Assembly (NCBI GenBank): GCA_013374835.1
Contig: CP055307.1
Location: forward strand, 74,447-138,446
DNA: 64,000 bases
Direction of reading: 5' to 3'
Source: Candidatus Woesebacteria bacterium
GTDB taxonomy: Bacteria > Patescibacteriota > Microgenomatia > UBA8517
Shown here: piece by piece, positions 27,201 to 57,008 of the stretch
How positions within the stretch are numbered: the stretch's first letter is position 1
Layout of the letters: the number at the start of each line of letters is the position of its first letter
Translations under genes and position numbers: made by a program
Notes under the pieces: generated by a model
The model's database searches: none
The model's input: the letters and a program-made list of their open reading frames with translations, nothing else
Told to the model about the DNA's origin: nothing

Positions 27201-27686
27201 TCAACGCTCAACTTTTCTATAAGTCTCGCGGAAGGCGTGACCATCGATAATATATGGCTTCCCTTCGCGATTGCCGTCTGGGTCACAGGTGTCAGCAATG
27301 AAACAGTTCTCATCTCCCCTCTGGGGCGAACCCCAAGGAGCCATAATTTCGATCGGCTTCTTGAACGGATTCGGAATCGCACGACAATATCCCTTCGCCG
27401 CGTAGACGCCTTTATTACCGGTGGCTTCATAACGCGCAAAAAATTTCTCCCCTGAAACGACGTAGCTTTCTTCATCTGGATTGGTGACGACCCAGTCTCC
27501 TTCACGGGCTACATTCACAGTTTCTTCACTTCCGTCTTTAAGTATGGTTCTAATTTCCTCACCGGGCATTGCACGACGGGCTTTTACACGAACATTCTTT
27601 TTATAGACAGGAGCTCTATCAAGCTTCTCCATAATTTCGGGTGAATTAATGTCTACAAACTGGAAATTACCCTCTCGGTTCTCCAT
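27201..27686 (-). CDS. hypothetical soluble protein
   Basis: 161-aa ORF. No motifs recognised. Confidence 0.4.
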   Translation of the reverse strand: MENREGNFQFVDINSPEIMEKLDRAPVYKKNVRVKARRAMPGEEIRTILKDGSEETVNVAREGDWVVTNPDEESYVVSGEKFFARYEATGNKGVYAAKGYCRAIPNPFKKPIEIMAPWGSPQRGDENCFIADTCDPDGNREGKPYIIDGHAFRETYRKVER

Positions 27687-28003
27687 TCTCGGTTATCCTT
27701 ATTTCATAAGGTTTATGATTGAATACGAACTAATTGTTATCCTAATATATCATAAAGAAGTCTCAAAAGCAAATAAAAAGACTAATCAGGCTAAGAAAAA
27801 TATTAACTTCAAACAAAAAAACCAGATCACTAAAATGAATTAATAGAATTATTTGCCCAATATCTATGAATACAACTACAGCCGTTGTTTAGCCCGCGAT
27901 TATTTTAATAAATTTGAGATTCTAATGATTATAAAATTTTTATAAAAGATATTCTTTACGCAAGAAAAATCTACCGATAGCAAAGAAAGATTGCTTGCGC
28001 GAG

Positions 28004-28089
28004 CGGAGGAGGTGGGATTCGAACCCACGCATCCTTTATCAGGATCAGGTTCTCCAAACCTGTGCAATTGGCCGCTATGCGACTCCTCC
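28004..28089 (-). tRNA. tRNA-Ser (anticodon GGA)
   Basis: Revcomp is GGAGGAGTCGCATAGCGGCC...CAGGTTTGGAGAACCTG...long variable arm...GGTTCGAATCCCACCTCCTCCG. Confidence 0.75.
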
Positions 28090-28148
28090 AAACATATTTT
28101 ATAGACCGTCTCGCACAAGCTTTGAATAAAGCTTGTGCAACTCCTCCC

Positions 28149-28598
28149 TCAAACTAACTTTTTCTTAAAATTAAGCCTTTTTTCCTCAATCTCCTTGGCA
28201 ATTTTCAAAGCCTCTTTTAACATCTGTCTGTCTCTTTTTGTTTTAAGTTTTTTAACAGCGCTTTGGTATTCAAACCAATCACCATTCAAAAAACCAAGCA
28301 TTTCTCCGCTGTCTTTTGTTGACATCAAATAATAAATAAATCTTTGTGCAACAAGCTTATTATTAACGCGCGTAGCACCGCCACTTCTTCCCACTTCGTC
28401 AAGCACCCTTGCCTTTATTCCTCCCTGCTCTGCCATTACCCTAATAGCAGCCCGGACCGAAGATTCGGCCTTTCGAACAGTCGTTTTTGGAAACTCCCAA
28501 TCACCATCCTTCTCATGAACAACAAGAAACCATTCTTTCTTACCCTTCTCTTTCTTAAACACCACAGGCACGGATACCAATAAAAGTTTGTCTTTCAT
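28149..28598 (-). CDS. hypothetical protein (weak, degenerate Nudix-box resemblance)
   Basis: GDWEFPKTTVRKAESSVRAAIRVMAEQGG matches GX5EX7REUXEEXGU only partially. Confidence 0.3.
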   Translation of the reverse strand: MKDKLLLVSVPVVFKKEKGKKEWFLVVHEKDGDWEFPKTTVRKAESSVRAAIRVMAEQGGIKARVLDEVGRSGGATRVNNKLVAQRFIYYLMSTKDSGEMLGFLNGDWFEYQSAVKKLKTKRDRQMLKEALKIAKEIEEKRLNFKKKLV

Positions 28599-28832
28599 GG
28601 CTGTATTTTACACCAAATCAACACTTTTTTCTTCACAAATAATATTTTTATCAACAAAAACAGTTAAACAAAAACTCTGGGTTAAACCGTCTTAAAAATT
28701 TTAATAAATAATTGTTAGCACCGTGGCGAAACCAACCCAAAACAAATAAACAACGCTCCATACAAGAGCAAAAAACCAAAAAAAAGACGTCCAAGAGACT
28801 CAACAAACTTTTGACATCAACCACGATCCACG

Positions 28833-40152: not shown

Positions 40153-41601
40153 ATGGTTTATTTTATTCTAATTCTTGGCTACTCGCTTAATCTTATTTTT
40201 ATAAGTATTTTTAAATACAACTATTCGTATGACGAAATCATAGTTACCGAAATAAGCAAACAGCCAATAAGCACTCTATTAAATACAATCAAAGCAGAGC
40301 CACACCCTCCCGGGTTTTATTTTTTATTAAAATTTCTCCCGGTAGATAATCCGACCGCGACAAAATTAATAATCACGTCAGCAAGCTTCATCCTTTCCAC
40401 AGCTACCATTTTCTTTCTACACAAAAAGGAATTAATCAATAAATTCAAGCTCAAACACGGGCTTACGCTTTTTTTCTCGTCTTTTACCTTTCTCTCCACA
40501 AGCACAGAGGTAAAACAAACAAGCCTTTCAGCACCCATACTTCTGCTTTTTCTCTCCACTTTGTTTTATACGGCTAATAAAAACAAAATAAGCCAGATAA
40601 ACATAATAACTATTAATATTAGTGTTCTACTTCTTCTGTCACTGGGCTACATCAACTATTTAATAGGACTCTTTACCCTAATTGCCATCTGTTTAATCAA
40701 AAAAAATAAATTATTAATTTACTCATCAATCTTTCAACTAATTATATTGCTTTTTTTTCTAAAACTATTTGCGCTGGATCAAATCATAATTAATACCCAT
40801 AGGTTCTCTTGGATAAACGAATTTTATTCAAACCCAATAAATTTATTAAGCACCCACATTTCAGGCTTCTATTCTCAACATCCCGCCCTGGATATTCCTC
40901 TAATCTTTTTTCTCCTGCTAATTTTTTTGGGAATCTACAAAAACAACACAAAAACACCCAAAGCATTCTACTATGCCCAAATTGTTGCTCTAATACTATT
41001 TCTTATTACAATAATTACAAAAACCTCTGTAAGAGTAAGGTATTCAACTCCCCTGCTTTTTACGCTTAGCACCCTGGCAGGCTGGGGACTAATAGCTCTA
41101 AACAACGCTTTCAAAACAAACTCGCTTTATAAACCGACAATTTCCCTTTTCTTTTGTCTGGGATTTTTAGGACATATCTACAACCAAACAACCATCCAAA
41201 AAAATAACCAAATAATAGTCAACGCTGTCAATTCCTTTCCCGAGAACAAAAAGGTAGCTCTCGCAATCGACAGAGAAATTTATCCCCTCGCTTTCAAATT
41301 AAAATTCTTCAAAAACAAAAAGAATTTAATTCCGGTAAATTTTTTTAACCCCGGTCTAATTGAAAACTCTCAAACAATTACCCAAAAGCATTTAACAAAT
41401 TATTCCTTACCCGGTCTCCCACTCAAAATTAAATATGAAAACTATCTATTTGTAGATATTCAAAGGCCGATTAAATCAAATAGCGAAAAGGATAAAATCA
41501 ATTTAATCCTCACCCTTAACAAATCCTGTAAACAATCAAACATTATTAATATCAATAATTCATTTACACTCTATTCTTTTGAAGACTGTCTTTCAAAATA
41601 A
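40153..41601 (+). CDS. GT-C fold glycosyltransferase (ArnT/PMT-like) embedded in the pilin array
   Basis: YDEIIVTEISKQP...AEPHPPGFYFLL matches the DE-x-Y...hPPL first-loop signature of GT39/GT83 enzymes. ~12 TM plus a C-terminal soluble domain. Confidence 0.5.
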   Translation: MVYFILILGYSLNLIFISIFKYNYSYDEIIVTEISKQPISTLLNTIKAEPHPPGFYFLLKFLPVDNPTATKLIITSASFILSTATIFFLHKKELINKFKLKHGLTLFFSSFTFLSTSTEVKQTSLSAPILLLFLSTLFYTANKNKISQINIITINISVLLLLSLGYINYLIGLFTLIAICLIKKNKLLIYSSIFQLIILLFFLKLFALDQIIINTHRFSWINEFYSNPINLLSTHISGFYSQHPALDIPLIFFLLLIFLGIYKNNTKTPKAFYYAQIVALILFLITIITKTSVRVRYSTPLLFTLSTLAGWGLIALNNAFKTNSLYKPTISLFFCLGFLGHIYNQTTIQKNNQIIVNAVNSFPENKKVALAIDREIYPLAFKLKFFKNKKNLIPVNFFNPGLIENSQTITQKHLTNYSLPGLPLKIKYENYLFVDIQRPIKSNSEKDKINLILTLNKSCKQSNIININNSFTLYSFEDCLSK

Positions 41602-41643
41602 CGAAAGCCTTGCCGAGATGTTTTCTCCAATATAAAATGAGTT

Positions 41644-41976
41644 ATGAACATGCTTACCCCATTTGTTTATGCAATAGATCCAAGCAACATCCAAGACGGA
41701 GATGTGCCAATACTAAGAGGCCTCGAAGACGTATTTGAATCTGTAATAAGCCTTGCTATTCCGCTTGCCGCCATTGTCCTTTTTGTTCTTCTTATCATAG
41801 GTGGATTCAAATACCTCACAGCCGGCTCAAACGCGGGCAAAGTCGAGGCAGCTCAAAAAACCATAACTTACGCAATTTTAGGCATGGTCCTTATTGCCCT
41901 AGCCTATTTGATATTAGAATTTATCGCCGCATTCACAGGAGCTACTTATCTACGCCAATTCAGAATAAGAATATAA
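41644..41976 (+). CDS. pilin-like protein, subfamily B
   Basis: LLIIGGFKYLTAGSNAGKVEAAQKTITYAILGMVLI. Confidence 0.5.
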   Translation: MNMLTPFVYAIDPSNIQDGDVPILRGLEDVFESVISLAIPLAAIVLFVLLIIGGFKYLTAGSNAGKVEAAQKTITYAILGMVLIALAYLILEFIAAFTGATYLRQFRIRI

Positions 41977-41994
41977 AAATCTTTTCAAAAAACA

Positions 41995-44900
41995 ATGAAA
42001 AAAAAGGCAATAAAATTTACCCTCATACAAGCCAGCGTATTCACTTTTTTAATTTTTCTCAGCAAATCTATATATGCACAAACCCCGGTGGACCTAAGAG
42101 ATTTCATTGCAGGACCCGACTTTGTTCCCCATTCTTTAAGCTCTGGAGAACAAATCAGCTTTTCTTCAGAAGGAGATTGTCACGCAATGGGCCAAGCCGT
42201 AAGGCAATACAAAAACGCAAACTACGAACAGTTCTGCATAGGAGCAGATGGTGTTTATAGACAAGAGGATACAAGCTGGGCAATTTCAATTGGAAACAGG
42301 CTCCAAAATGCACACTGTAAGGGCACTCTTGACAAAGCAATTATTACCTCAGACCCAGGATGCACCACCTATACCCCAGGCTCTCAAGTAACAACAGACG
42401 GAGCCTGGTGGGCCCCAGCCGGAATCGGCTCAATGACCACAGGACAATCCTATTCCTACATCACCCACAATCCATGGCAAATAGTAACAATAAACAACAA
42501 TATCCTCCAATCCGGAGGAGGTAAAATCTACTGTGAAATCGAAGAAAGCCCGTATTCAGATAGATATAAATCCCCAAACACCTGTGGATCCACCATCTCC
42601 GTCTCTCTTACCTACTACGACGCCGGTGAATACGAATTCTGCACCGGACTAAAAAACAACGAGCCAGTAATCGCCATGGGCGCAACCTCAGGCCCCGGCT
42701 CAGACGAAAAAATAATCTACATGAAAGGCTGGGGAATAGTGGGTTTCGAATCTCCATTTATGACAGTTGGGCTAATGGGAACGGACAACTATGGAAACAC
42801 AGCCGACCCCTCAGGCTGCACTACACCAGGAGCTTTTGGCCCTGGAGCCTCGGGTGTGCAGTGCGAAGATGAATTTTTCCCTGAATTTCACTCCCTGCGC
42901 CCATACCCTGCGTGTCCAATCCCCCCCGACATTATGGACACAAGCTTTCTCCTCTGCGGAAACGACCTTATAACCCAGGAAACCCTTGAAATAAGATACG
43001 GCGAAGATCTGCCCGATGGAATTTCACTAATTAACTGCACGGAAGAAGAAGAAAATTTAATTTGCAATTACAAAATTACAAATAGAACCATACCAATAAG
43101 AGTAGATCTCTCAGAAGCAGACCTCCCCATCATGGGACTTACCGAAGACCCCTTCTCAACCGAAGGTGATGAACCCTGGCCACACAAAAGAATCCCGGAC
43201 TCAGTTACCCCAGCCCAAAGAATGAACGAATACGTCAGCTGGTACTTAAACGGCACAATAGCAAGAGCCGAAGATCCGTTGCTTGCAGTAACCAACGATT
43301 ATCCCGAAAAACCAGACAATATAAGCGATCCTAAATTCGAAAAAATATTCCGCGACACGAGATTATTAATAAACTTCTCAGGCCCCCTAAGAAAACTTTT
43401 ACCCTGGAGAATCCAAGTAAGAGAAAGAGAGAAACAAATTTTTGAAGCATCCGGCTTTGGAGGCCCCGACGTCGCCGGAAACATCCGCCACAACCAAATT
43501 GTCGGCTGCACGTATGGGTTATCTATACCTAACTTTTGGGACATATTCAACATAGACGAAATCGGAGGAATACCTGGTCCATGCTATGAACCCAAAAAAG
43601 AAAACGACTTTATAATTCCTGATTTATTCCAAAGACAAATACACCGACTTTCCGACTGGCTCGAGGGAGGAGTAAACGAGGAGCTGGACAAATGGAACCG
43701 CCTTCCTCCGTACGACGAAGACATCGGCACCAAATACGAAAATTTTCAAGAATACTGGAAAGAATACAGGCGTTGGCGCGGACAAAGCTGCACACCAAGT
43801 TTGGATCTTGGTGATATACCACTCGATCAAATCCCTGGCATAGGATCAATTTTAGGATCTCTCTTAGACATCGTACCCAACCTTTATCTTTGCTACGACA
43901 ATCCATTAAAATTCAATTATTGGTCAAGCCTCTTTAGCTATATCCCCTTCTCATCAACTGAAGATAGAACCGGATATGCAGAAGGCCACCTGGACACTGC
44001 TCTTACGCAACAACCGCCAAGCGACGCAAATATCACAGACATTAATTTTACACCAAATCCGGGCACAATCCTGCCGGACGACGGAAAAATGAGGTTTCTC
44101 TATTTCCCCCACATGCAGGAAAGCGCAGAACTAGGATATCTGCTTCAGCAAACCTTCCTTACAAAAGGAGAAGGTGGCTTCTCAAATATCAACGAACAAG
44201 GTTACTACAATACAGAGCGCTGTGAATACCTAGACACCAGAAAAAACCCGGGTGACGATCTATACGGCGGCGATTTCGATCAAGAAGGTCTTCCATGGAA
44301 CCAGCCCGTAAACGACGAACGGACAATAGACGGAAACATAACATATTCAGGCACCTTCCAGTGCTCTTTCTATCTTGCAGAGCCGGTTTGCGATGGCATC
44401 GGCTACCCCGGCCAAGTCCACTGTAACACGGACGAGTGTAGACCATATGTTTGTACAGAATCCGGAAACTGGGAACCAGCTTGGGACACGATAACAGGAG
44501 GAGTAGGACAATACCCCTGTAGTGGAACAGCAGGAAATTGCACCTCCTCAAGCACATTCTCGCCACCGGATCCGGGTGTTTGTACAATAAACATAAGCAC
44601 TGCAACATCAATCTATATAGGCACACCAAAGGCAGAAGAAGTCTGGGATAGACTAGTAAACGGAAGCCAGTCGGTCTTCAGAAGAATTTACCCAAAAGTA
44701 GGAGCGGAAAAGCCTGTCGAAGAAATAAAAGACATCCCGGCAGAAGCCAAGGCAAGCTACTCCTCAGAAGATGGAAACGTCCAAGTCTTTGCAGGAAATC
44801 CAGCTGCAGCAAGGCCAGGCTCAAACGCAAAAATATTCTTCCCCCATATCGGCTCAATCTACGACTACTTTCTAAAAGGCATTCAAAAAGCCCTCAGACC

Positions 44901-45543
44901 AAAAGACATTCAAACCATCCAATCAGGCCCGTCATCCACCCCGCCTCCGCCTCAAAACACAGACTGCCCCATAAACTGCAACCAAGACGTACCAGATTCA
45001 GAAATTCCAACAGCCTATTTAGGAACATTCAAACAAAACATAATTAGGCTTGCAAACGACTTGTACGCAGGCACTGGTAGAAACTTCGCAAAAGAATGCT
45101 ACAACGACGTAGTAAAAAGATCGCTAAACGCGGGCTATAACCCAGCGTTTGTTATCACAATATGGCTTGCAGAAAGCGGGGCAAGCAACTACAACCAAGC
45201 TTGTACTACCCAAGACTTTGGGATAAACAGGCCAGAAATGGCGGCAGATTTTAACGAACAAATAAGATGGTTCTTTAATCTTACAAACATCTGGAACACC
45301 ACATATCCGGAATGCATAGACTGTAATATCTCAACAGGAGAATGTACCAATGGCTATACATATATGGAAAACTGGACACACCTTTTCAAATCTGAAGACC
45401 CAATAAACGCCACAGGAGAATGCGTTCCAGATCCGCCCTCACAAAGCAGGCTTGCAGACTACCAAAACATTTGGAATTGGGTTGCGCCCGCATGCCCATT
45501 TCCTCAAACGCCGTTTCACAACACATGTCCAAATATAAATTAA
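41995..45543 (+). CDS. large secreted Cys-rich protein (1182 aa) with C-terminal lysozyme-like / lytic transglycosylase-like region
   Basis: Signal peptide. ~45 Cys across the length. C-terminal block AGYNPAFVITIWLAESGASNYNQACTTQDFGINR resembles the SLT E-S-G catalytic motif. Confidence 0.45.
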   Translation: MKKKAIKFTLIQASVFTFLIFLSKSIYAQTPVDLRDFIAGPDFVPHSLSSGEQISFSSEGDCHAMGQAVRQYKNANYEQFCIGADGVYRQEDTSWAISIGNRLQNAHCKGTLDKAIITSDPGCTTYTPGSQVTTDGAWWAPAGIGSMTTGQSYSYITHNPWQIVTINNNILQSGGGKIYCEIEESPYSDRYKSPNTCGSTISVSLTYYDAGEYEFCTGLKNNEPVIAMGATSGPGSDEKIIYMKGWGIVGFESPFMTVGLMGTDNYGNTADPSGCTTPGAFGPGASGVQCEDEFFPEFHSLRPYPACPIPPDIMDTSFLLCGNDLITQETLEIRYGEDLPDGISLINCTEEEENLICNYKITNRTIPIRVDLSEADLPIMGLTEDPFSTEGDEPWPHKRIPDSVTPAQRMNEYVSWYLNGTIARAEDPLLAVTNDYPEKPDNISDPKFEKIFRDTRLLINFSGPLRKLLPWRIQVREREKQIFEASGFGGPDVAGNIRHNQIVGCTYGLSIPNFWDIFNIDEIGGIPGPCYEPKKENDFIIPDLFQRQIHRLSDWLEGGVNEELDKWNRLPPYDEDIGTKYENFQEYWKEYRRWRGQSCTPSLDLGDIPLDQIPGIGSILGSLLDIVPNLYLCYDNPLKFNYWSSLFSYIPFSSTEDRTGYAEGHLDTALTQQPPSDANITDINFTPNPGTILPDDGKMRFLYFPHMQESAELGYLLQQTFLTKGEGGFSNINEQGYYNTERCEYLDTRKNPGDDLYGGDFDQEGLPWNQPVNDERTIDGNITYSGTFQCSFYLAEPVCDGIGYPGQVHCNTDECRPYVCTESGNWEPAWDTITGGVGQYPCSGTAGNCTSSSTFSPPDPGVCTINISTATSIYIGTPKAEEVWDRLVNGSQSVFRRIYPKVGAEKPVEEIKDIPAEAKASYSSEDGNVQVFAGNPAAARPGSNAKIFFPHIGSIYDYFLKGIQKALRPKDIQTIQSGPSSTPPPPQNTDCPINCNQDVPDSEIPTAYLGTFKQNIIRLANDLYAGTGRNFAKECYNDVVKRSLNAGYNPAFVITIWLAESGASNYNQACTTQDFGINRPEMAADFNEQIRWFFNLTNIWNTTYPECIDCNISTGECTNGYTYMENWTHLFKSEDPINATGECVPDPPSQSRLADYQNIWNWVAPACPFPQTPFHNTCPNIN

Positions 45544-45574
45544 GCATTAGCCTCTTTTCTTTTCTCAAAAATAA

Positions 45575-47188
45575 ATGATATTATTAAAAATGATAAAAAT
45601 TAAAAAGAAAAACATGATCAAACGCCTGCTCATATTGTTTCTTTTAGTCAATTTACTATTCTTGTCTATTTTTGCCGCTCCTGCCAAGGCTCAATGGTAC
45701 AATCAATCCTTTGGCCAATGGTATGTACAAGTTTATGATAGCGAAAACCCGGCAGAAATATTCGGAGAGCGCTACACCGCCGCCCAGGTTCAATGGGTAA
45801 CATACGGATTTATAGCTCTTTTAATACACACAATTACAGAAAGACTTCCCATTAATCCGGAAAATATAGTAAATTTCATTACAACAGGAGACATTTCAGA
45901 ACTTTCTTCAAATAGCACTGCTCCACAACCAATCGCCCAAAACAAGGAGCAAAACGGCAAAAATCTTCTGCAGGAAATATTTAGAGACAAACCCCTTTCG
46001 GGAATAACTTATACCAAAGAAGCTATAAAAAACATCAAACTCATTCCTGAAGCTAAAGCCCAAACTACAGGTTTTGGATTTCAAACACTCGGACCAATAA
46101 GAGGATTGTGGAGAATCTCAAGAAACATTGCCTACACGCTTTTTGTCCTTGTAACAATTGTCTTGTCGTTTATGATAATGTTTCGCGTAAAAATCTCACC
46201 ACAAGCGGTAATTACGGTCCAATCAGCACTCCCAAGAATATTTCTTGCACTCATATTAGTCACATTTTCATATCCTATCGCTGGCTTTTTAATCGATATT
46301 ATGTACGTAACAATAGGTCTTATAAGCTTGCTTGTTGGCGGAACAAGCAATGCTCTTGATCTCTTCAATTTATTAACCAAAGGCCTTGATCCTCTAAAAA
46401 TTGGTTATGGCGCAGGTATATTGGGCATATTTTTTTACCTTCTTTATATATATATTATCTCTGCCCTCGGATTTTTTGCATACGGCATCGCTGATCTTAA
46501 TTCAGAACAAATCGGCGGTGGCGCAGGAGGTATCGGACTTGGACTTTTAATGCTTGTTTTTATATTTATATTTGTATTTGCAGCACTTTTTACATTTTTC
46601 AAAATAGTAATTCTTCTTTTCAAAACATTTACCACTATCTTAATTCTTACCATTATCGCCCCAATTCAATTAACGCTCGGGGTAGTAATGCCTGAACTTG
46701 GATTTGGTAATTGGCTTAAAAACTTCGTTAAAAACCTTGCCGTTTTCCCTACTTTGGGGTTGTTGTTACTACTGGCACTAATCTTTGCCTCATCAGCAGC
46801 AATTGCATTTATCAACCTCGACATTCCTGAAATAGGAATCCCAGAATTAAAAGCTCTGTCTTTCAACCCGGCAAGCTACAATCAATTCGAGGGTCAAGGA
46901 TGGCCGCCTTTCCTCGATCTAAACGGAGCCGCTCTCAACTTCGCCTTTGTAATAGTAAGTGTAGTAATTCTTGCAATGGCAGCAAAAGTAGATCAACTAA
47001 TAAACGCCCTCATGACAGGCCGGGTCTTTGGCTACGGCACAGCTCTATCCGAATTTACAGGAATAGCACCTCCAGAAGCAGGCCAAGCCGGGTGGATTAA
47101 TAAACAAATTAGTCAATTAAGACAAGCTAGAAAAGCTTCAGGACAAAGAGGTAGCGGGCTCGCAGGCAGCGCACAAGGCGGTGGATAA
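45575..47188 (+). CDS. VirB6/TrbL-like polytopic membrane protein
   Basis: Signal-like N-terminus and a ~150-aa periplasmic region, then at least 6 TM helices, then a Gly/Ser-rich tail (GSGLAGSAQGGG). Alternative start at 45614. Confidence 0.5.
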   Translation: MILLKMIKIKKKNMIKRLLILFLLVNLLFLSIFAAPAKAQWYNQSFGQWYVQVYDSENPAEIFGERYTAAQVQWVTYGFIALLIHTITERLPINPENIVNFITTGDISELSSNSTAPQPIAQNKEQNGKNLLQEIFRDKPLSGITYTKEAIKNIKLIPEAKAQTTGFGFQTLGPIRGLWRISRNIAYTLFVLVTIVLSFMIMFRVKISPQAVITVQSALPRIFLALILVTFSYPIAGFLIDIMYVTIGLISLLVGGTSNALDLFNLLTKGLDPLKIGYGAGILGIFFYLLYIYIISALGFFAYGIADLNSEQIGGGAGGIGLGLLMLVFIFIFVFAALFTFFKIVILLFKTFTTILILTIIAPIQLTLGVVMPELGFGNWLKNFVKNLAVFPTLGLLLLLALIFASSAAIAFINLDIPEIGIPELKALSFNPASYNQFEGQGWPPFLDLNGAALNFAFVIVSVVILAMAAKVDQLINALMTGRVFGYGTALSEFTGIAPPEAGQAGWINKQISQLRQARKASGQRGSGLAGSAQGGG

Positions 47189-47199
47189 AATTTAAAAAA

Positions 47200-49302
47200 T
47201 CAAATAGGTAAATTGTCTATAACCATAACAACCTTATCCATCAAATAAGCAGCTACTCTTTGATAAGGGTTCCTCTTCAACTTTCTGGCCCCTATTTCAT
47301 TAGCCTCATCTACGAACTTCCTAAAATGCGCCGCATTCTCACCAGACGGATATTTAACCCTTAATCTATAAGAACTCTTAAACGCAGTCCTTGCAGCTAC
47401 AACATAAACCCCTTTTACAATATTTTCTCGATATTTTCTATCTACTTCCAATTCACTAAAAGCGTCCGCCAACCCCCTCCAAGTTTTTATTCGACCTCTC
47501 ACTATAGCCTCATTAATCGTTTTTGCTCTGTCAATAGCGCCAAAAATATATTTAGAAAACGGCGTTTCGGAAACCTCATTAAAATCTAAAGTCTCAAGTT
47601 TCATATTCGGCCTAATATGTAAAATTTTTCTACCGTTTCCTAATAAAACATCTCGAAAAGTTATCTCCTTTTTTCCTTCCTTTTTGGCTCCCATATACGA
47701 AAACGCATCCTTGTATAATTCTTTTGGCAAAACATTTGACTTTTCACCCCTAAAAAGACGACCAGAAATCACATGCCGCTTTTTCTTTCTTAGTACGCTT
47801 GCCGACCAAGAACCAAATGGCACACTCCATTCTGACTCCCCATCTTTGGCTTTTTGCTCTAACCTCTCTTGGGGGTGCATCGAAATCCTTATTGGCAAAG
47901 ACATTAACCTAAAATCCATAGGAGGAATGCGGCTATTATTGTTTCGTTTATACCTCGAATCTTCATATTCAACTACATTGCCCTGTGTAAAGAAATTCCA
48001 AGCAGCTCGAGCTACATCGTCAGCATTTATTTCAACATCATCTCCGTTTTCGATTTTCTCCCGAACAACCCCATGTCTTGATAGCCACAAAGCCACATTG
48101 GAAACTAAAGTATCAAGGTCACTAAGTTCTTTAAAATCAAAAACCGTCCCACCGTTCTTAAACTTGCCATAAACAGCATCGTTCCTTTGAGTTTCAGTTG
48201 AGTTCAAATCCCTATCAAAAAATTCATTCAAATCAACCCCATCAACAACAATGGCTGTATATAAAGAAACGGCGTGCATAAAACCCGGAACTCTCCACAC
48301 CTGCCTACCCTGTACTTCATCGCATCCAAACAAAAATGAAATTTCATCTTTTGTTAATTCACCAATTGGATTGCTTGGATATAAATCATCAAAACTAAAT
48401 GTATTTACCTTGTGATAAAGAGCACGTGCTAATTTATATCTTATTTCCCACCATTTCTTTGTATCACCCTCAAGATCCTTCACCATAATATTTGGATTTA
48501 CACCTTCTACTGGAACTTTGGCGTCTTTTTCCAATCTCCTAAAAGAATTTCTAAAATCCTCCGGGGTTTCAAGAGTTTCTTTTCTTTCTTCCCACTGTCT
48601 GCGCTCCTGTCGCACTCTTTCCTCTTCTATCATTCTCACCCTCCTCTGTTCAGCAGCAATCTCTTGCAACAGCGCCGCCTCCACACCTCTCACATCCCGA
48701 CTAGAAGGTCTTGCAACTTCAGCGGACATATCACCAGTTAAACTATTAATGTTATATCTCTCTTCAAACCAACCTGTTGGAACAAAATTAAAATCCTCAA
48801 ATCTGTCAAGCGCATTAGCTTTCATTATTGGACCAAATTCTTTACTTACCCGCTTTCGCTCCATATCCAGTTTATTCACCAAACTCTGAACAGCAGCATC
48901 AAAAATCCCCACATATTTCTCTCCTTTTTCTTTGTCTAAAGCTTCTTCAAACTCTTGAGCAACAGAGATTATTTCCCGAAAATATTCGCCCCAATCAACC
49001 TTTCCACTATTATTAAAAATTTCTGTTTTTTCTACAATCTTAGATGCAAAGTCTTCAAAACCAGGAGCTGATTCTAAATACTTTCCCAACAATTCTTGAC
49101 CTTTTTTAATCCAACTGTTTAATTCACTCAATTTATGTGGGTCTAGAGAACGATTTTCTTTAATTTCTTTCTTGTAAGTTTCAATGTCTCGAATTATTTC
49201 CTTAGCAGTTACCTCATGCGCACCCTCTCCCCGCTCAGGAGCTCCACCCATACTCAAATCGTCTGGTCTGAAATGAATTTCAGGACTCATAGTATCATCC
49301 AT
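47200..49302 (-). CDS. large hypothetical cytoplasmic protein (700 aa) encoded antisense to the surrounding locus
   Basis: No TM and no signal peptide. Charged and coiled-coil-rich N-terminal half. No motif recognised. Confidence 0.45.
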   Translation of the reverse strand: MDDTMSPEIHFRPDDLSMGGAPERGEGAHEVTAKEIIRDIETYKKEIKENRSLDPHKLSELNSWIKKGQELLGKYLESAPGFEDFASKIVEKTEIFNNSGKVDWGEYFREIISVAQEFEEALDKEKGEKYVGIFDAAVQSLVNKLDMERKRVSKEFGPIMKANALDRFEDFNFVPTGWFEERYNINSLTGDMSAEVARPSSRDVRGVEAALLQEIAAEQRRVRMIEEERVRQERRQWEERKETLETPEDFRNSFRRLEKDAKVPVEGVNPNIMVKDLEGDTKKWWEIRYKLARALYHKVNTFSFDDLYPSNPIGELTKDEISFLFGCDEVQGRQVWRVPGFMHAVSLYTAIVVDGVDLNEFFDRDLNSTETQRNDAVYGKFKNGGTVFDFKELSDLDTLVSNVALWLSRHGVVREKIENGDDVEINADDVARAAWNFFTQGNVVEYEDSRYKRNNNSRIPPMDFRLMSLPIRISMHPQERLEQKAKDGESEWSVPFGSWSASVLRKKKRHVISGRLFRGEKSNVLPKELYKDAFSYMGAKKEGKKEITFRDVLLGNGRKILHIRPNMKLETLDFNEVSETPFSKYIFGAIDRAKTINEAIVRGRIKTWRGLADAFSELEVDRKYRENIVKGVYVVAARTAFKSSYRLRVKYPSGENAAHFRKFVDEANEIGARKLKRNPYQRVAAYLMDKVVMVIDNLPI

Positions 49303-49378: not shown

Positions 49379-49406
49379 TTGAAAGATAAGCTACATGCAC
49401 TACAAT
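49379..49406 (+). promoter_or_regulatory. near-consensus sigma-70 promoter upstream of the VirB3-like/VirB4 genes
   Basis: TTGAAA, 16-nt spacer, then TACAAT. Lies 33 nt before ATG 49439. Confidence 0.4.
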
Positions 49407-49438: not shown

Positions 49439-50416
49439 ATGCACGATCAATTTTCAACATTCGAACAGCATCCGGTGCCACAAAACATCAGTTCATACCA
49501 GTTTAGGCTCATAGGAGACATGACCATCAAGCAATTCTTTCAGCTTGCAGGCGGGGCTTTAATTGCGCTTCTTTTTTACGCCTCCCCTTTCCCGGGTTTT
49601 ATCAAATGGCCGCTTATCATCTTTTTTGCACTGGCAGGAGCAGCCTTTGCCTTCCTTCCTCTTGAAGAACGTCCACTAGAAGAATGGGTAAAAGCATTTT
49701 TCCGATCCGTTTATTCACCTACAATCTATGTCTGGCAAAAAACACAAACCCCCCCCATTATTTTCGCCCAACAAGTAGCTCCAGTAGCAACCGAAGAAAA
49801 CGCACAAGAATCGGGTCAGCCACAAGACCCCGCCCAATCAAACCTTGATAAAGCAGAAAAAAAATTCTTTGACAAATTCACAAATCTTTTTTCAATATCC
49901 CCAGCAAGCCCACCCAAACAAACGGTCTCAATCCCACCCCAGCCAGTCAGCAACCCACCACAGCCAGAAACAACAACCGTTTCCATTAATGCACACCAAG
50001 GGTCAAAACCCAGCTTTAATATAAGCGTAAACGAAAACGAAAAAATAGCGACAAAAAACGCACCACAAACACTCATTGCACAACAAATCCAAAAAGCCCA
50101 AGCCGCACAATTTAGCCCGGAGTCAGCACCGCCCACCCCCCCAACACAGCCCAATATAGTTGTTGGCCAAACAATAAGCACCGAAGGAAAAATTATAGAA
50201 GGTGTAATACTCGAAATAAAAGACGCTCAAGGCCGTCCAGTACGCGCCCTCAAAAGCAACAAAGCAGGACACTTCCTAATAGTCACACCACTAAATAACG
50301 GCAAATATCAAATTACAGCCGAAAAGGAAGGCTTTGCATTCGACCCGATTGAAATAGAGGCAAACGGACAAATCATTCAACCTATCGCCATAAAAGCAAG
50401 GTCTCAACCAAACTAA
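49439..50416 (+). CDS. VirB3/PrgI-like small membrane module fused to a Pro/Gln-rich linker and a carboxypeptidase-regulatory-like beta-sandwich domain
   Basis: N-terminal ~100 aa with two TM helices directly upstream of VirB4. C-terminal GKIIEGVILEIKDAQGRPVRALKSNKAGHFLI...YQITAEKEGF, a transthyretin-like fold. Confidence 0.4.
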   Translation: MHDQFSTFEQHPVPQNISSYQFRLIGDMTIKQFFQLAGGALIALLFYASPFPGFIKWPLIIFFALAGAAFAFLPLEERPLEEWVKAFFRSVYSPTIYVWQKTQTPPIIFAQQVAPVATEENAQESGQPQDPAQSNLDKAEKKFFDKFTNLFSISPASPPKQTVSIPPQPVSNPPQPETTTVSINAHQGSKPSFNISVNENEKIATKNAPQTLIAQQIQKAQAAQFSPESAPPTPPTQPNIVVGQTISTEGKIIEGVILEIKDAQGRPVRALKSNKAGHFLIVTPLNNGKYQITAEKEGFAFDPIEIEANGQIIQPIAIKARSQPN

Positions 50417-50417
50417 A

Positions 50418-51119
50418 ATGCAAAATCCCATCAAAAAAATACCGCTCCTAAACATTCCGGACAAGCCCCTTGTCGGCACAACTCAAGATCACATTCCCGT
50501 TGCTGAAATTGAAAACGACATGGTTCTTCTCAAAGACGGTGGTGCGGCAATAATTCTAGAAACCACATCCCTTAACTTCGGACTTCTGTCTGAACGCGAA
50601 CAAGAAGCAGTAGTTGCAGCTTTTGCGGCACTCATCAATAGCCTTAGTTTTCCAATCCAGATTTTGGTAAGAACCGAAAAAAAAGACGTATCAAAATATC
50701 TTAAATCAATAGAAGAACATCTTCCAAATGTAAAAAGCGAAAAACTAAAAGGATTAATGATCGGCTATAAAAATTTCATCTCAGAAACCATAAAGAAAAA
50801 AAATGTGCTTGGAAAAAGGTTTTTTATAGTAATTCCCTTCTCTCCATTTGAATTAGGCGTTAATGCCAAATCGCTGTTGGATTTCAAAAAAAAGAAAAGG
50901 ACAATACCATACTCCAAGGAATACGTTATCAAAAAAATCCAAACCTCTCTCTACCCCAAAAGAGATCATTTAATCAGACAGGGCACCCGCCTAGGTTTAA
51001 AAATGCGACAACTAAACAACGAAGAAATAATTAAACTTTACTACAATATCTATAATCCCGATTTCGAAGCCATACAAGTAAAAGAAAAGGAGGAGGAAAT
51101 CAAAAATGAATCTATTTAA
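50418..51119 (+). CDS. VirB4/TraE-type ATPase, N-terminal domain encoded as a separate ORF
   Basis: IPVAEIENDMVLLKDGGAAIILETTSLNFGLLSEREQEAVVAAFAALINSLSFPIQILVRT matches the N-terminus of Gram-positive VirB4 homologs. 14-nt overlap with the next ORF. Confidence 0.55.
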   Translation: MQNPIKKIPLLNIPDKPLVGTTQDHIPVAEIENDMVLLKDGGAAIILETTSLNFGLLSEREQEAVVAAFAALINSLSFPIQILVRTEKKDVSKYLKSIEEHLPNVKSEKLKGLMIGYKNFISETIKKKNVLGKRFFIVIPFSPFELGVNAKSLLDFKKKKRTIPYSKEYVIKKIQTSLYPKRDHLIRQGTRLGLKMRQLNNEEIIKLYYNIYNPDFEAIQVKEKEEEIKNESI

Positions 51120-53016
51120 AGCCAGAGACAACATAAATCAAAAACACACAAATACCCAAATGCTAAATCCCAAAATTCCCGCCCCAACAAATCAAGGTCA
51201 AGAGGTTCGAAAGCAAAAATTTGCCGATCCCATAGCAGCGCTCAAAGAAATGCCGCTTCTTGACGTCCTTGCTCCAAACAAAATAGAGCTTGATTTCGAT
51301 TATATAGAAATAGACGGAGTATATTTCAGAACACTTTTTGTTGCAGGATACCCGCGCTTTGTCGTCCCCGGATGGATGGAGCCGATCATAAATTTCGACC
51401 ACAGCCTTGATATTTCATTCTTTATTTATCCTGTCGAGGGAAGAACAATCCTCGATGAATTAAGAAGAAAAATCACAGAAATGGAGGCTGAAATTGCAAC
51501 AGACATCCAAAGAGGAAAAATAATAAACCCAGCAACCGAAGCAAAACTGGAAGACGCCAAAATGCTTCAAGAACAGCTCGTTAGAGGAGCCGAGCGCTTC
51601 TTCGAATATTCTTTCTATATTACAATCCCGGCAACTTCTCTCGAAGCCTTAAATAGCATCACAAAAAGAGTAGAATCCACCTTATCCTCTCTTTTAATCG
51701 TTGCAAAACACGCTGCCCTTGATCACGAAAGAGGTTTTCTCTCAACAGCGCCCTTTGGCCGCGATATGCTTTCAATAACAAGAAACATGGACACAACATC
51801 TCTTGCCACCACCTTTCCGTTTACAACAGCCGAGCTAAGTAGCGACGAAGGAATTTTATACGGAATAAACTCTCAAAACGAGTCGTTTATTATATTCGAC
51901 CGATTCACTCTTGAAAATTCAAACATGACCGTTTTTGCTACTTCAGGCGCAGGAAAAAGCTTTTTCGTAAAACTAGAATCTCTTCGCTCTTTGATGTTCG
52001 GCACAGAAATAATAGTAATAGATCCGGAAAACGAATATCAAACACTCTGTGAAGCCGTAGGAGGAGAGTATATTAAATTCTCATACTCAAGCCCCTCAAA
52101 AATAAATCCGTTTGATCTCGCTCAAATATACGAAAAAGGCGAAAACCAGCTAAATCTCAAGCTTCTGTCTCTTCATTCATTGTTCAAAATAATAATGGGT
52201 GAATTAAACGCATCCCAAGAAGCCCTTCTTGATAGAGCTCTTATAAACGCCTACCGCGCAAAAGGCATTACTCCCGATCCCGAAACACAAACCAAAGAAC
52301 CGCCTCTTATTGAAGACCTCTATAAAGCTCTTATTGGAATGGAAACCTCTGAAGCCCTAGACCTCGCCGCACGCATTGAAAAATTTGTAAGAGGAAGCTA
52401 CGCGGGCGTCTTTGACAAACACACAAACATAGATATAAAAAATCCCTTCACCGTCTTTTCAATTAGAGATATTGAAGACAGCATCCGCCCAATATCAATG
52501 TTTATAATTCTTGACTTCATCTGGACAAAAATAAGACGCAACATAAAAAAACGCATCCTTGTTGTTGACGAGGCTTGGCACATGATGCGCTATCCTGATA
52601 CTGCTCAATTTCTCTGGTCTATTGTCAAAAGAGCCCGTAAATACTATCTTGGCCTGACAACAATCACCCAAGATGTTGAAGATTTTCTAGCCCAAGACAT
52701 TGGCAAAGCAGTAGTCACAAACTCAGCTCTAAGGCTCCTTCTCAAACAAAGCCCGGCTGCAATAGACAAGGTTTCGGAAACATTCTACTTATCACAGGGC
52801 GAAAAACAGCTCCTTCTCGGTGCAAATATAGGCGAAGGTATCCTCTTCGCAGGCCCCCACCATGCACCAATAAGAATTGTCGCATCAAACGAAGAGTATC
52901 GATTAATAACAACTAATCCAAAAGACCTTGAGAAAAATCCAGCCTCACCCGAGCTTACACCGGTCGAGTCTGCAAAAATCATAGGCTATTCAAAAGAAGA
53001 AGGAAATATTGTCTAA
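51106..53016 (+). CDS. VirB4/TraE/CagE-type T4SS ATPase (core and ATPase domains)
   Basis: Walker A FATSGAGKSFF. VIDPENEY. Walker B ILVVDEAWHMM. Perfect SD AAGGAGGAGG 8 nt upstream, inside the preceding ORF. Confidence 0.75.
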   Translation: MNLFKARDNINQKHTNTQMLNPKIPAPTNQGQEVRKQKFADPIAALKEMPLLDVLAPNKIELDFDYIEIDGVYFRTLFVAGYPRFVVPGWMEPIINFDHSLDISFFIYPVEGRTILDELRRKITEMEAEIATDIQRGKIINPATEAKLEDAKMLQEQLVRGAERFFEYSFYITIPATSLEALNSITKRVESTLSSLLIVAKHAALDHERGFLSTAPFGRDMLSITRNMDTTSLATTFPFTTAELSSDEGILYGINSQNESFIIFDRFTLENSNMTVFATSGAGKSFFVKLESLRSLMFGTEIIVIDPENEYQTLCEAVGGEYIKFSYSSPSKINPFDLAQIYEKGENQLNLKLLSLHSLFKIIMGELNASQEALLDRALINAYRAKGITPDPETQTKEPPLIEDLYKALIGMETSEALDLAARIEKFVRGSYAGVFDKHTNIDIKNPFTVFSIRDIEDSIRPISMFIILDFIWTKIRRNIKKRILVVDEAWHMMRYPDTAQFLWSIVKRARKYYLGLTTITQDVEDFLAQDIGKAVVTNSALRLLLKQSPAAIDKVSETFYLSQGEKQLLLGANIGEGILFAGPHHAPIRIVASNEEYRLITTNPKDLEKNPASPELTPVESAKIIGYSKEEGNIV

Positions 53017-53017
53017 C

Positions 53018-55381
53018 ATGGCATTTAAAATTCCAGAAAGAAAAGAAGGATTAATAAGGCTTAGGAACCAACTGCTCAAGGCAGCAGAATCCGCATCGAA
53101 AAGCAGCGCTCTTCCTATAGAACTGACAGAGCTTTTAAACAAAGCTTGGCTTATCACCAACAGCATAGATATCAATCCTGAAATTTTAAACAAACTTCCT
53201 CAATCTGCTCAAGTCGACCTTGCTATAAAGATGTCTAAAATAGCTGCCTCTCAACTTAACATTATGATAACAACCCCCTCGCTCTTTGAAATGCTGTTAG
53301 ACGAAAATAGAAAAAAAACAACATCCCCGGACCTCCAATCAGATCTAAAAGAAGCTTTAAAAAATCTCGAAAAAATCATTAAAGACCCTCAAAAATATGG
53401 TATTGACCCAAAAGAAGCACTAACCATTGCTAGCAAACTTCTTAATAACCCGGATCTTGACCCAAAAGATAAAGAAAATCTTGACGAGTTAATAAACGAG
53501 GTTCTGGAGGCAACAAAAACAGTTCAAAATATCGAAGATATCAGTTTTATTCTTTCCCCCGAGCAAAAACAAATAGAAGAAAAAATAAATATTTTTACTA
53601 ACGCCACCGATCAAGGAAAAAACGTACAAAACGAAAAACTGGAACTCGCACAAGTAGCTGGTTTAAGCTCAATACTGCTAAGCCAAAAACAAAATCTCAT
53701 TTCAAAAGCCAAAGTCTTCATAAAAACAACCTATAACTTAATGTACCAAAGACTGATTTCAAAAGGAGGTGCTGCTGCAGCCATCGCTTTTCTCGCCGAT
53801 AAAGCAATCAAAACTGTTGCAAGAGTTGCAAGCATGGCAAAAAGAGCCACTCAAGGAAATATTGGAGACTTAGCGCTACTTAGTGTTTTTTTTGCCGGTT
53901 TTTTAATAGGCGGTCCAATCGGCGCAGCACTCATGCTTTTTGCAATAAGTCCAAGGTTCAGAAAAATAGTAATAACAGGCCTTTTTATATCTCTCACACT
54001 TATCCTAACAGAAATGCTTATTGCTCTTTTGGTTATCATTATTTCTATCTCAATAATTCTTTTTATAATCAATTCAGGAGCCTATATAGTTCCCCAAGGA
54101 TCACCGCTTCAAGGAGAAGAATTAACCCAAGGTATAGTAGCATCGGGAACCTGTCCCCTAGTTTCCAGTTGTCCTAAAATCGACTCAGGCTCCTATAATC
54201 CGGAAAACGAAACGGGTCACGGAAGCAACTCTTATTGGGGTTCTGCAACAAATGCCTGTACTTATTCCATCCCCATTGACCCAATGGGGGGTTGTCTTGG
54301 CCCCGATCCTACAAACGGAAGAAATTTCTGCTCTTCTGCTCCAACAAGATGCTCTGTTTACGGATACGCTGCAGACGTGGTTGATTGCAATGGGGTTTAT
54401 GCAGACGTAGCTCTCCCCTATCTTTGTGATCCTGGAAGCGAAACGTGTAGCCCCTTAACTTGGCGCTTTATTGACGGATGGTACAACTGCCAAGGAGCAA
54501 GCGTCCCAAATAAAGCATCCTGCACAAGAGAAGGGTGGGGATATGGTGCAATCTTTGAGGCAATAGGAAACGGACACATTTGGCGCATCTACCTTAACCA
54601 CATTAGCCAACTTCCCTCGGGCAAAACTTATCAATCAGGCTCTGTAATCGCCCAGCTCACCAACGAACTCATTCCAGGACATCTCCATGTCGAGCTTAAC
54701 ATCGATGGTTTTGCAGTTAAACCGGACTTTCTCTGCTCGGGAGAAGGCTCTGGAATAACACCTCCCGTAAATACAGACCTTGAAGGTTGGTACGTCACAG
54801 TAAATCCGGAAAATCTTATAGCATCAAACCCGCTTTCAGAAAACGAGGTTGGTATTAATTCCTGTACTTGGATGAGCTCAAAAGGTCTATCTGCTGCCAT
54901 TAATGCCAATTTTTACTTAAACGCAAACACTCCAATAGGCCACGCAGGTTATAATGGCAATTTTACAAATTACCCACCAGATGAGGGTTTTTCAGCCTAC
55001 AACTTTAAAACTCTCGTTGTGACAGAGAGCAACCAAGCTCAAATTGTAAAACACTCAAACTTGCCGGACAATCTTACAGGCCAAGGTTATAAACTTGCTG
55101 TTACAGGAGTTGCATATAATAACATTACAGGTTCAGGCCCCAAAACAGTCGTTGGAATCAAAAATAATCGCGTCTATTTAATAATATTAAGAAGCGCAAC
55201 GGCAGTTCAAGTACAACAGTTTATGGAATCTGTATTGGGAGTAGACGACGGATTCTTTCTTGATAGCGGCGCATCAACAACTCTATGTAACTCAAACGGC
55301 ATAGTCTTTTCCGGCCAGAATCCACCAAGAAATATTCCCTCGCACATAGGAATTACAAGCGGTAGTTTTATCAGGTTATAA
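53018..55381 (+). CDS. membrane-anchored cell-wall hydrolase: M23 peptidase-like plus phosphodiester-glycosidase (NAGPA/DUF2233)-like domains
   Basis: Long Lys/Glu-rich cytoplasmic N-terminus, TM helices (~300-360), GHIWRIYLNH...GHLHVELN (M23 HxH), then C-terminal ...FFLDSGASTTL, like the LDGGGSS block of phosphodiester glycosidases. Start taken at ATG 53018; the track uses TTG 53009. Confidence 0.5.
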   Translation: MAFKIPERKEGLIRLRNQLLKAAESASKSSALPIELTELLNKAWLITNSIDINPEILNKLPQSAQVDLAIKMSKIAASQLNIMITTPSLFEMLLDENRKKTTSPDLQSDLKEALKNLEKIIKDPQKYGIDPKEALTIASKLLNNPDLDPKDKENLDELINEVLEATKTVQNIEDISFILSPEQKQIEEKINIFTNATDQGKNVQNEKLELAQVAGLSSILLSQKQNLISKAKVFIKTTYNLMYQRLISKGGAAAAIAFLADKAIKTVARVASMAKRATQGNIGDLALLSVFFAGFLIGGPIGAALMLFAISPRFRKIVITGLFISLTLILTEMLIALLVIIISISIILFIINSGAYIVPQGSPLQGEELTQGIVASGTCPLVSSCPKIDSGSYNPENETGHGSNSYWGSATNACTYSIPIDPMGGCLGPDPTNGRNFCSSAPTRCSVYGYAADVVDCNGVYADVALPYLCDPGSETCSPLTWRFIDGWYNCQGASVPNKASCTREGWGYGAIFEAIGNGHIWRIYLNHISQLPSGKTYQSGSVIAQLTNELIPGHLHVELNIDGFAVKPDFLCSGEGSGITPPVNTDLEGWYVTVNPENLIASNPLSENEVGINSCTWMSSKGLSAAINANFYLNANTPIGHAGYNGNFTNYPPDEGFSAYNFKTLVVTESNQAQIVKHSNLPDNLTGQGYKLAVTGVAYNNITGSGPKTVVGIKNNRVYLIILRSATAVQVQQFMESVLGVDDGFFLDSGASTTLCNSNGIVFSGQNPPRNIPSHIGITSGSFIRL

Positions 55382-55904: not shown

Positions 55905-57008
55905 TTACTCTTGAGTCTTTACAGGCATAATAATATGATAAAAATTGTTGCTTTGCCCATCCCTAAAAACCCCGGGAGAAATAGAATCAGTAAATTCCAT
56001 AATAACCTCATCCCCATCAACCACATTCAAAAAATCCTCAATAAAACGATAATTATAAGTAATTTCAACTTCCCCACCCTCAACTTTCGCATCTATTTTA
56101 ATATTTTGGCTTCCCGACCGTGAACTCTCGGAAGAAAGCCCAATTCCCTCATCTAAAACTTTCAATTTAACAGTATTAGCACTATCACGAGCAAAAACAG
56201 AAGCAAGCTTAATAGCTCTTAACAAATCTTCTTTTGAAACAATTGCTTTTACGTTGTAACTTTTAGGGACTATTTTTTCAAAATCAGGGAAATCGCCTTC
56301 AATCAACCTACTGGAAAAGATATTTCCATCAAAACCAAACAACACCTGGTTATCACCACTTCTGTACTCAAAATCAAGCATTTCTTCAACGTCTCTAAAA
56401 CGGGAAATTTCAGCCAAAATGTTCCTAGGAACTATAAATTTACATGGCTTTACTTTTTCTCCCAATAAAAACTTGACAGATGACAACCTAAATCCATCAG
56501 ATGAAACAAGAAGAAGACTATCTCCTTGAAAAACAAACAAAACCCCCGTTAAAATAGGTCTGGTTTCGTCTCGAGACACACTAAAAAGCACTTTACCCAA
56601 CATATCTGAAAATTTCTCAAAATTAATTTTTTTAACGTCCCTGCCGATTTTTTCTGGAATACTAGGAAAATCTGAAGTGTTCATTCCTGCTAAATTTGCA
56701 TAAAAAGCATTCGAGGTTACTAAAAGCGTTTCATTCCTAGATTCCAAGGCTACCGTCTCATAAGCTAAATTTAAAAGTATTTCAGAAAAATTTCTGGCAG
56801 GTACTGCAATATCCCCTTCTTTACTTATTTTTGCAGCAATAGATCCGCAAAAAGAATTTTCAAGATTAGTTGCCATAACATAAATTTTATTTTTGGATGT
56901 TTTAATAACGCTATTTTCAAGTATCGGAAGCTGCGACCTTGTTGAGGTAAATCTAGTAGCAATACTCAAAATTTTTGAAAGTTCATTTCTTAAAACAATC
57001 GCCTTCAT
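55905..57008 (-). CDS. dnaN: DNA polymerase III beta sliding clamp DnaN
   Basis: 367 aa. Three-domain clamp pattern. Position immediately downstream of dnaA. Confidence 0.85.
   Translation of the reverse strand: MKAIVLRNELSKILSIATRFTSTRSQLPILENSVIKTSKNKIYVMATNLENSFCGSIAAKISKEGDIAVPARNFSEILLNLAYETVALESRNETLLVTSNAFYANLAGMNTSDFPSIPEKIGRDVKKINFEKFSDMLGKVLFSVSRDETRPILTGVLFVFQGDSLLLVSSDGFRLSSVKFLLGEKVKPCKFIVPRNILAEISRFRDVEEMLDFEYRSGDNQVLFGFDGNIFSSRLIEGDFPDFEKIVPKSYNVKAIVSKEDLLRAIKLASVFARDSANTVKLKVLDEGIGLSSESSRSGSQNIKIDAKVEGGEVEITYNYRFIEDFLNVVDGDEVIMEFTDSISPGVFRDGQSNNFYHIIMPVKTQE

Follow-up and report, generated by a model that had tools for sequence, protein, structure and literature searches.

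Genes and junction

The 64,000-nt stretch of contig CP055307.1 from a Candidatus Woesebacteria bacterium that was analyzed here (hereafter the window) carries two overlapping genes, ORF1 and ORF2, whose predicted products together correspond to a VirB4 ATPase of a type IV secretion system (T4SS). As outlined in Table 1, the two genes follow each other on the same strand and code for 233 and 636 amino acids (aa), respectively, the frame of ORF2 being +1 relative to that of ORF1. Both coordinates and the overlap of 14 nt, which an initial annotation made from the letters of the window had given for the region 50418-53016, were confirmed from the ORF list and the sequence. The Shine-Dalgarno (SD) element which that annotation had placed 8 nt before the second ATG was likewise found as the SD-like motif AAGGAGGAGG, with the trivial discrepancy that the spacer to the ATG at 51106 comprises 9 nt (AAATCAAAA). 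Upstream of this start the frame of ORF2 is closed by a TAA at 51079 and open from 51082 on, i.e. 24 nt ahead of the ATG. Folding of the junction RNA gave no significant secondary structure (z-score 0.47) and therefore nothing that points to sequestration of the SD element as a coupling mechanism. Since 1970 homologues of ORF1 and all 8000 scored candidates for ORF2 were obtained at E ≤ 1e-3, both reading frames are considered real genes and not chance ORFs.

Assignment of the two proteins

According to its profile matches ORF2 is a VirB4 ATPase of the MPF_FATA/CD1110 type without the first N-terminal subdomain. It scores 381 bits against the NCBIfam model conju_CD1110 (NF045971, E 1.2e-113) and is thus above the curated cut-off of 325 bits, covering positions 183-752 of 752 while the first ~180 positions are missing. 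A complete N-terminal domain is therefore not found within this one polypeptide; the missing part is supplied by ORF1. Further support for the ATPase part comes from the Pfam family P-loop_TraG (E 7.7e-33, 114 bits) and from the structure of a VirB4 C-terminal domain in the PDB (4AG5, E 3.8e-46). In the alignment with TrwK, residues 429-739 of TrwK correspond to residues 254-573 of ORF2, which therefore retains ~250 residues ahead of the ATPase domain. As judged from these alignments, the break is located inside the N-terminal domain of VirB4 and not at the boundary between this domain and the ATPase. The protein thereby reads as a variable N-terminal tail (residues ~1-45), the remaining part of the N-terminal domain and the P-loop ATPase domain, in which the motifs Walker A (ATSGAGKS) and Walker B (ILVVDE) were located. 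The initial assignment of the 636-aa product as the remainder of VirB4 with both Walker motifs is corroborated by these data.

ORF1, in turn, is by its sequence matches a TrsD/TraD-like protein and the counterpart of the first N-terminal subdomain of VirB4. It consists of a globular core (residues ~22-215) followed by a short charged C-terminal tail. The NCBIfam model TrsD/TraD (NF041427) is matched end to end, from position 14 to 200 of 201 (E 1.4e-7), with a score of 31.6 bits versus a curated cut-off of 200 bits, so that ORF1 is a remote homologue and not a member of this family at NCBIfam stringency. It also shows the arrangement typical of TrsD/TraD, a protein of ~200-230 aa directly upstream of an N-terminally short VirB4 (233 and then 636 aa). 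Against VirB4_plasma (NF045975), the NCBIfam model for VirB4 of integrative and conjugative elements (ICE) of Mycoplasma, ORF1 matches positions 104-290 of 894 (E 6.8e-9) and ORF2 positions 292-888. Consequently, the two proteins are colinear and abut each other on a single-chain VirB4. Together with the TrsD/TraD match this result bears out the earlier claim that the 233-aa product matches the N-terminal domain of VirB4.

No match of ORF1 was obtained in the local copy of Pfam, and PF26593 is listed by precomputed annotations for nearly all of its homologues. An AlphaFold2 model was built on 33 homologues (predicted local distance difference test, pLDDT, 72; predicted template-modelling score, pTM, 0.61) and compared with the PDB by Foldseek. 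The best 13 matches were all TrwK/VirB4 chains of R388, the best of them with E 2e-3 and a probability of 1.0.

Conservation of the two-gene arrangement

The initial annotation had regarded the gene pair as a genuine split rather than a random frameshift and had proposed to compare it with VirB4 orthologs in related genomes. This comparison was carried out with the best 120 of the 1970 ORF1 homologues and the best 120 ORF2 homologues (E ≤ 1e-3) as well as with a set of one genome per species, i.e. 80 related loci plus the window. The 120 ORF1 homologues (55-93% identity) all stand alone, with lengths of 219-285 aa. The ORF2 homologues (72-96% identity) measure 572-681 aa in 119 of 120 cases, the exception being an 829-aa fusion (P0150). 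Of the 81 loci, 79 have the two-gene form and two (L021 and L062) the single-ORF form, in agreement with the earlier judgement. Where the records of the related loci name a lineage, it is Woesebacteria, Microgenomates or unclassified Patescibacteria, and the closest loci are metagenome-assembled genomes of Woesebacteria. From the 72-96% identity to Patescibacteria proteins we infer that the VirB4 of the window belongs to the Patescibacteria clade.

In the 79 split loci the two genes overlap by 1-74 nt or are set apart by up to 72 nt, whereby the ORF2 starts of the relatives were set heuristically to the first ATG in the open frame and individual overlap lengths, especially those of -56 and -74, may be too high. 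The genes overlap in 47 loci (in 29 of them as ATGA) and are spaced by 0-60 nt in 31. The overlap of 14 nt occurs in four loci, among them the window and its nearest relative (L001, 93-96% aa identity), which also keeps the SD-like motif as AAGGAGGAG. Ahead of the chosen ORF2 start such a motif was found in only 25 of the 79 split loci. With respect to ORF1, ORF2 lies in frame 2 in 43, in frame 1 in 27 and in frame 0 in 9 of them, and nine loci hold an in-frame stop between the two genes. Conservation is lowest in the first ~45 residues of ORF2 and in the last ~20 of ORF1, which fits a break in a flexible linker; this linker is variable and probably disordered. Taken together, the comparison of the relatives argues that the split is old, conserved and under selection and that it is not a recent indel.

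As a separate observation, many of the relatives (e.g. L002, L006, L015 and L016) bear the record title 'uncultured Gammaproteobacteria bacterium' (binchicken co-assemblies) and others plainly 'bacterium'. The Gammaproteobacteria titles are probably mislabelled; the TrsD and VirB4 genes of these records are typical of Woesebacteria/Patescibacteria.

Operon and chromosomal context

The pair is embedded in a row of closely spaced genes that code for PrgI, ORF1, ORF2, a 790-aa protein and a 168-aa Big_5 protein, with spacings of +1, -14, -8 and +8 nt (Table 1). A promoter-like site (49379-49406, 10 of 12 matches) was found upstream of PrgI only, and no terminator-like site was present on the + strand of the operon before 54270. 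The PrgI (VirB3-like) protein, whose stop lies 1 nt ahead of the ATG of ORF1, is unusually long (325 aa), with a P/Q-rich linker and a C-terminal beta-sandwich extension that matches CarboxypepD_reg and NOMO1-like domains weakly and below threshold. On the other side of the pair, the 790-aa protein carries hydrophobic segments at aa ~270-350, a Cys-rich middle part and a C-terminal NAGPA (phosphodiester glycosidase) domain. Its position in the operon makes it a candidate for a cell-wall-acting or channel component of the T4SS.

The association of VirB4 with other T4SS genes is thus given by PrgI immediately upstream and, at a greater distance, by six T4SS_pilin genes. Two of the latter code for proteins of ~245 aa with a C-terminal pilin domain and four for proteins of 114-123 aa; these numbers refer to the ORFs scanned. 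Between the pilin array and PrgI lie four large ORFs that gave no Pfam match at E ≤ 0.01 and are candidates for lineage-specific T4SS or surface components. Downstream, dnaN, dnaA and yidC make it probable that the operon is situated directly beside the replication origin.

Table 1 Coordinates of the gene pair, its motifs and its surroundings in the window, and of two fused relatives (given with their locus).
Feature	Position	Strand	Remarks
ORF1	50418-51119	+	233 aa, ATG start, TAA stop 51117-51119 (ORF list)
ORF2	51106-53016	+	636 aa, ATG start (ORF list)
ORF1/ORF2 overlap	51106-51119	+	14 nt, from ORF2 ATG 51106 to ORF1 TAA 51117-51119
SD-like motif AAGGAGGAGG	51087-51096	+	within 3' end of ORF1, 9 nt ahead of ORF2 ATG
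Walker A, ATSGAGKS	51937-51960	+	ORF2 aa 278-285
Walker B, ILVVDE	52555-52572	+	ORF2 aa 484-489
PrgI (VirB3-like) membrane protein	49439-50416	+	first operon gene; Pfam PrgI E 5.8e-8, 33.6 bits (above 27-bit cut-off)
790-aa downstream operon gene	53009-55381	+	TTG start, 8-nt overlap with ORF2; Pfam NAGPA E 1.9e-10
Six T4SS_pilin (VirB2-like, Pfam) genes	35942-40068	+	upstream array
Four large ORFs	40153-49302	+ and -	482 aa, 1182 aa and 537 aa (+); 700 aa (-)
dnaN	55905-57008	-	
dnaA	57225-58592	-	
yidC	59426-60241	+	
Fused TrsD-VirB4, L021	L021:2613-5210		865 aa
Fused TrsD-VirB4, L062	L062:5974-8721		915 aa, long G/P/S-rich linker

Fusions, tails and inteins in the wider family

Single-chain fusions of a TrsD-like protein with VirB4 were found in four cases, with lengths of 829 aa (P0150), 865 aa (L021), 915 aa (L062) and 787 aa (P0271). 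For the first three of them the nearest neighbours were determined, and in each case these were split proteins; moreover, the linkers of the three fusions differ. The fusion therefore happened several times, and the sequences suggest independent re-fusions of the TrsD and VirB4 halves that arise sporadically among split relatives.

An exhaustive profile search with the ORF1 family yielded 2786 cluster representatives (E ≤ 1e-3). In the 150 of them that were listed, the TrsD-like domain is almost always N-terminal (residues ~2-214), and many of the TrsD-like representatives have 300-700 aa. In the four non-fused representatives that were inspected (P0247, P0262, P0279 and P0301), the domain is followed by C-terminal low-complexity tails of 100-500 aa rich in Q/P/S/T/N, which are presumably disordered. 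Such a tail, seen in other lineages of Patescibacteria, is absent from ORF1 of the window.

A further observation concerns the VirB4 half. In five Woesebacteria relatives (L005, L006, L048, L050 and L055) the VirB4 ORF is extended to 1171-1229 aa, and in the two that were scanned (L005:6674-10186 and L048:6708-10313) the additional ~550 aa represent an intein with a LAGLIDADG homing endonuclease (Pfam Intein_splicing and LAGLIDADG_3). It is inserted just before the P-loop region, corresponding to residues ~267-276 of ORF2.

Alternative explanations

The initial annotation had left open that a recent +1/-1 mutation gave rise to the two frames. According to this explanation, a frameshift or a sequencing or assembly indel has broken a single VirB4 gene, so that the locus would be a pseudogene or an artefact. 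The one frame that separates the two ORFs in the window would agree with it, and the four single-chain forms in relatives indicate that a one-ORF VirB4 is viable. A recent indel or assembly error is, however, excluded because 79 of the 81 loci are split and the close homologues of both halves are matched to them in size, one fused protein apart. Furthermore, the nearest relative shares the identical overlap, conservation of both halves is strong, ORF2 possesses an ATG and an SD element of its own, and the same break is found in plasmid pSK41 and in a Pontibacillus plasmid (see below). We therefore regard a broken gene as extremely improbable. Programmed +1 frameshifting or transcriptional slippage in the overlap, which had also been left open and which would give a full-length fusion VirB4 beside or instead of the two proteins, has in its favor that the +1 frame of ORF2 is open from 51082 and thus provides a 38-nt window containing C AAA AAT G, in which tRNA-Lys could re-pair in the +1 frame, and that an SD-like element is located upstream as in prfB. 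This element is, however, 5 nt away from the AAA codon versus 3 nt in prfB, the A-run comprises only 5 nt, and a stimulatory RNA structure is missing; a run of 5 nt is too short for efficient transcriptional slippage. Neither a slippery sequence nor the frame relation is conserved among the 79 split loci. As the type of junction varies (29 loci being of the ATGA type), all three relative frames occur and nine loci have an in-frame stop, a conserved programmed frameshift or slippage site is excluded, and frameshifting in any form appears very unlikely to us.

Somewhat less remote, albeit still unlikely, is the explanation that ORF1 (TrsD) does not derive from VirB4 but is an accessory T4SS protein in its own right, in which case the adjacency of the genes would merely reflect operon organization and the term 'split VirB4' would be misleading. 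Several results speak for it and weigh against a VirB4 origin of ORF1. Its homology to single-chain VirB4 is remote, as the score against VirB4_plasma amounts to 34 bits versus a family cut-off of 590 bits. Comparison of the ORF1 homologue profile with a full-length VirB4 of Clostridium botulinum (797 aa) by hhalign gave only E 0.013, the weak match lying at residues 26-146 and hence at the expected N-terminal position. Sequence searches of the PDB with ORF1 alone and with its profile returned nothing meaningful, and because of this ORF1 is tied to VirB4 within the PDB only through the fold search, whose TMq value is modest (0.39) and whose output does not say which residues of TrwK are matched. 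In addition, the long Q/P/S/T-rich tails of many Patescibacteria homologues are unlike VirB4, and none of the TrsD proteins has an experimentally assigned function (Quinonero-Coronel et al. 2025, PMC12102498). On the other hand, what ORF2 lacks of the CD1110 model is exactly its first ~180 positions, and the ORF1 match immediately precedes that of ORF2 on VirB4_plasma. The best structural matches of ORF1 are exclusively VirB4 proteins, and the recurrent natural fusions join the two halves in the expected order.

On balance, we consider it highly likely that the locus encodes the standard two-gene VirB4 of a Patescibacteria T4SS, with ORF1 as the TrsD-like N-terminal subdomain, ORF2 as the rest with the Walker A/B ATPase, and a break that is ancient and shared with the pGO1/pSK41 class.

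Proposed mode of action and implications

For this two-gene VirB4 the following course of events can be proposed. ORF1 and ORF2 would be translated from one mRNA of the operon PrgI(VirB3)-TrsD-VirB4-790 aa, and ORF2 would be initiated at its own strong SD element as ribosomes terminate on ORF1, which would favor similar amounts of both proteins. Such a translational coupling from ORF1 to ORF2 is plausible; it agrees with the overlaps found among the relatives, with the SD-like motif being present in the limited number of loci given above. The TrsD-like protein may then dock non-covalently on the VirB4 hexamer and contribute the surface that in single-chain VirB4 serves to bind the membrane anchor VirB3/PrgI. 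In the structure of the R388 system this VirB3-binding surface is located on the N-terminal part of the single-chain VirB4. Support for the hypothesis that TrsD supplies the VirB3-binding part of VirB4 comes from the fusions occurring in nature and from the structural match to the N-terminal region of TrwK.

To a more speculative view we assign a rather low probability. The break point of VirB4 in Patescibacteria could be an evolutionarily labile, disordered hinge that was re-fused independently in at least three lineages, while elsewhere the TrsD half carries the Q/P/S/T-rich tails of 100-500 aa. A separate N-terminal subdomain might then allow the cell to set its stoichiometry, or it might link PrgI/VirB3 to the ATPase hexamer as an exchangeable adaptor. 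If true, the split would be a means of regulation in an essential, non-conjugative T4SS rather than a neutral fission of the gene.

For annotation the consequences are straightforward. The 233-aa 'hypothetical protein' should be named a TrsD-like VirB4 N-terminal subdomain protein, and a label as truncated or frameshifted VirB4 should be avoided for the 636-aa gene. The remaining interest is confined to the side observations, namely the independent re-fusions, the disordered tails of the TrsD half and the inteins in the VirB4 P-loop of some relatives.

Comparison with known systems

Compared to the single-chain VirB4 proteins (TrwK of R388, the CD1110/Tn916 type and the Mycoplasma ICE), the version in the window consists of two polypeptides instead of one. 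The likeness is nevertheless evident from the colinearity of ORF1 and ORF2 on the single-chain model, from the homology of the ATPase domain to 4AG5/TrwK and from the fold of ORF1, which matches TrwK.

A two-gene organization is found in the Staphylococcus aureus plasmid pSK41, where TrsD (25886-26569, 227 aa) is followed by a DUF87/VirB4 protein of 672 aa (TraE/TrsE, 26584-28602). Residues 66-611 of ORF2 align with residues 49-645 of the pSK41 VirB4 (26% identity, E 1e-47), and the start of both proteins therefore falls on one and the same position within the VirB4 architecture. The ORF1 profile and TrsD were aligned by hhalign over 177 columns with a modest result (E 6.9e-5, probability 63%), and the identity between ORF1 and TrsD is remote (21%). 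The gene order matches as well, consisting of a small membrane protein, a protein of ~230 aa, a VirB4 of ~640-670 aa, a membrane protein and a cell-wall hydrolase, whereby the 790-aa gene of the window occupies the position of the VirB6/VirB1-like genes in pSK41. The small membrane protein ahead of the pSK41 TrsD is annotated as hypothetical, and we take it to be VirB3-like. In contrast to the overlap in the window, the two pSK41 genes are separated by a gap of 14 nt. Moreover, pSK41 is a conjugative plasmid with relaxase and coupling protein, whereas the locus in the window is chromosomal, is situated beside dnaA and possesses a VirB2-like pilin array. TraD and TraE of pIP501 are organized like TrsD and TrsE (TraD and TraE) of pGO1/pSK41. 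The best plasmid match to ORF2 comes from a Pontibacillus plasmid and is a 621-aa VirB4 of the CD1110 family, whose gene shares 11 nt with that of a 274-aa 'hypothetical protein'. The latter is a clear homologue of ORF1 (hhalign probability 99.7%, E 3.7e-25). From these alignments the break in VirB4 is common to Patescibacteria and the pGO1/pSK41 class of Gram-positive conjugation systems.

The closest correspondence exists to the T4SS already described for Patescibacteria. Quinonero-Coronel et al. (2025, PMC12102498) detected TrsD proteins of Patescibacteria with a TrsD HMM (hidden Markov model), likened TrsD to the N-terminus of VirB4 and reported it, beside virB4, as the commonest T4SS component of this group. 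Out of 2272 TrsD homologues 1664 were associated with virB4; outside Patescibacteria, TrsD was restricted to the pGO1 subclass of MPF_FATA, and S. epibionticum ML1 has a TrsD homologue that was listed as essential. The structure of the junction, TrsD-VirB4 fusions and inteins are not discussed in that work, and TrsD is not named in the main text of the earlier study by Guglielmini et al. (2014, PMC4027160). In one system tested, the Patescibacteria T4SS was essential for epibiotic growth (Wang et al. 2023, PMC10633639). With regard to the surroundings, dnaA/dnaN are frequent neighbors of virB4 and VirB2 arrays are abundant in Microgenomatia (PMC12102498), and the pilin array of the window agrees with the arrays reported for Microgenomatia and Saccharimonadia. 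Only 22.6% of the VirB3 homologues of Microgenomatia are located near virB4 (PMC12102498), whereas the PrgI/VirB3 gene of the window directly adjoins the TrsD-VirB4 pair. With TrsD beside VirB4, PrgI/VirB3, tandem VirB2-like pilins and a location near dnaA/dnaN, the window resembles the published systems (PMC12102498, PMC10633639), shows no substantive difference from them and is a member of this set. The arrangement of TrsD and VirB4 as two genes is hence genuine, ordinary and already published, and it is not peculiar to this genome.

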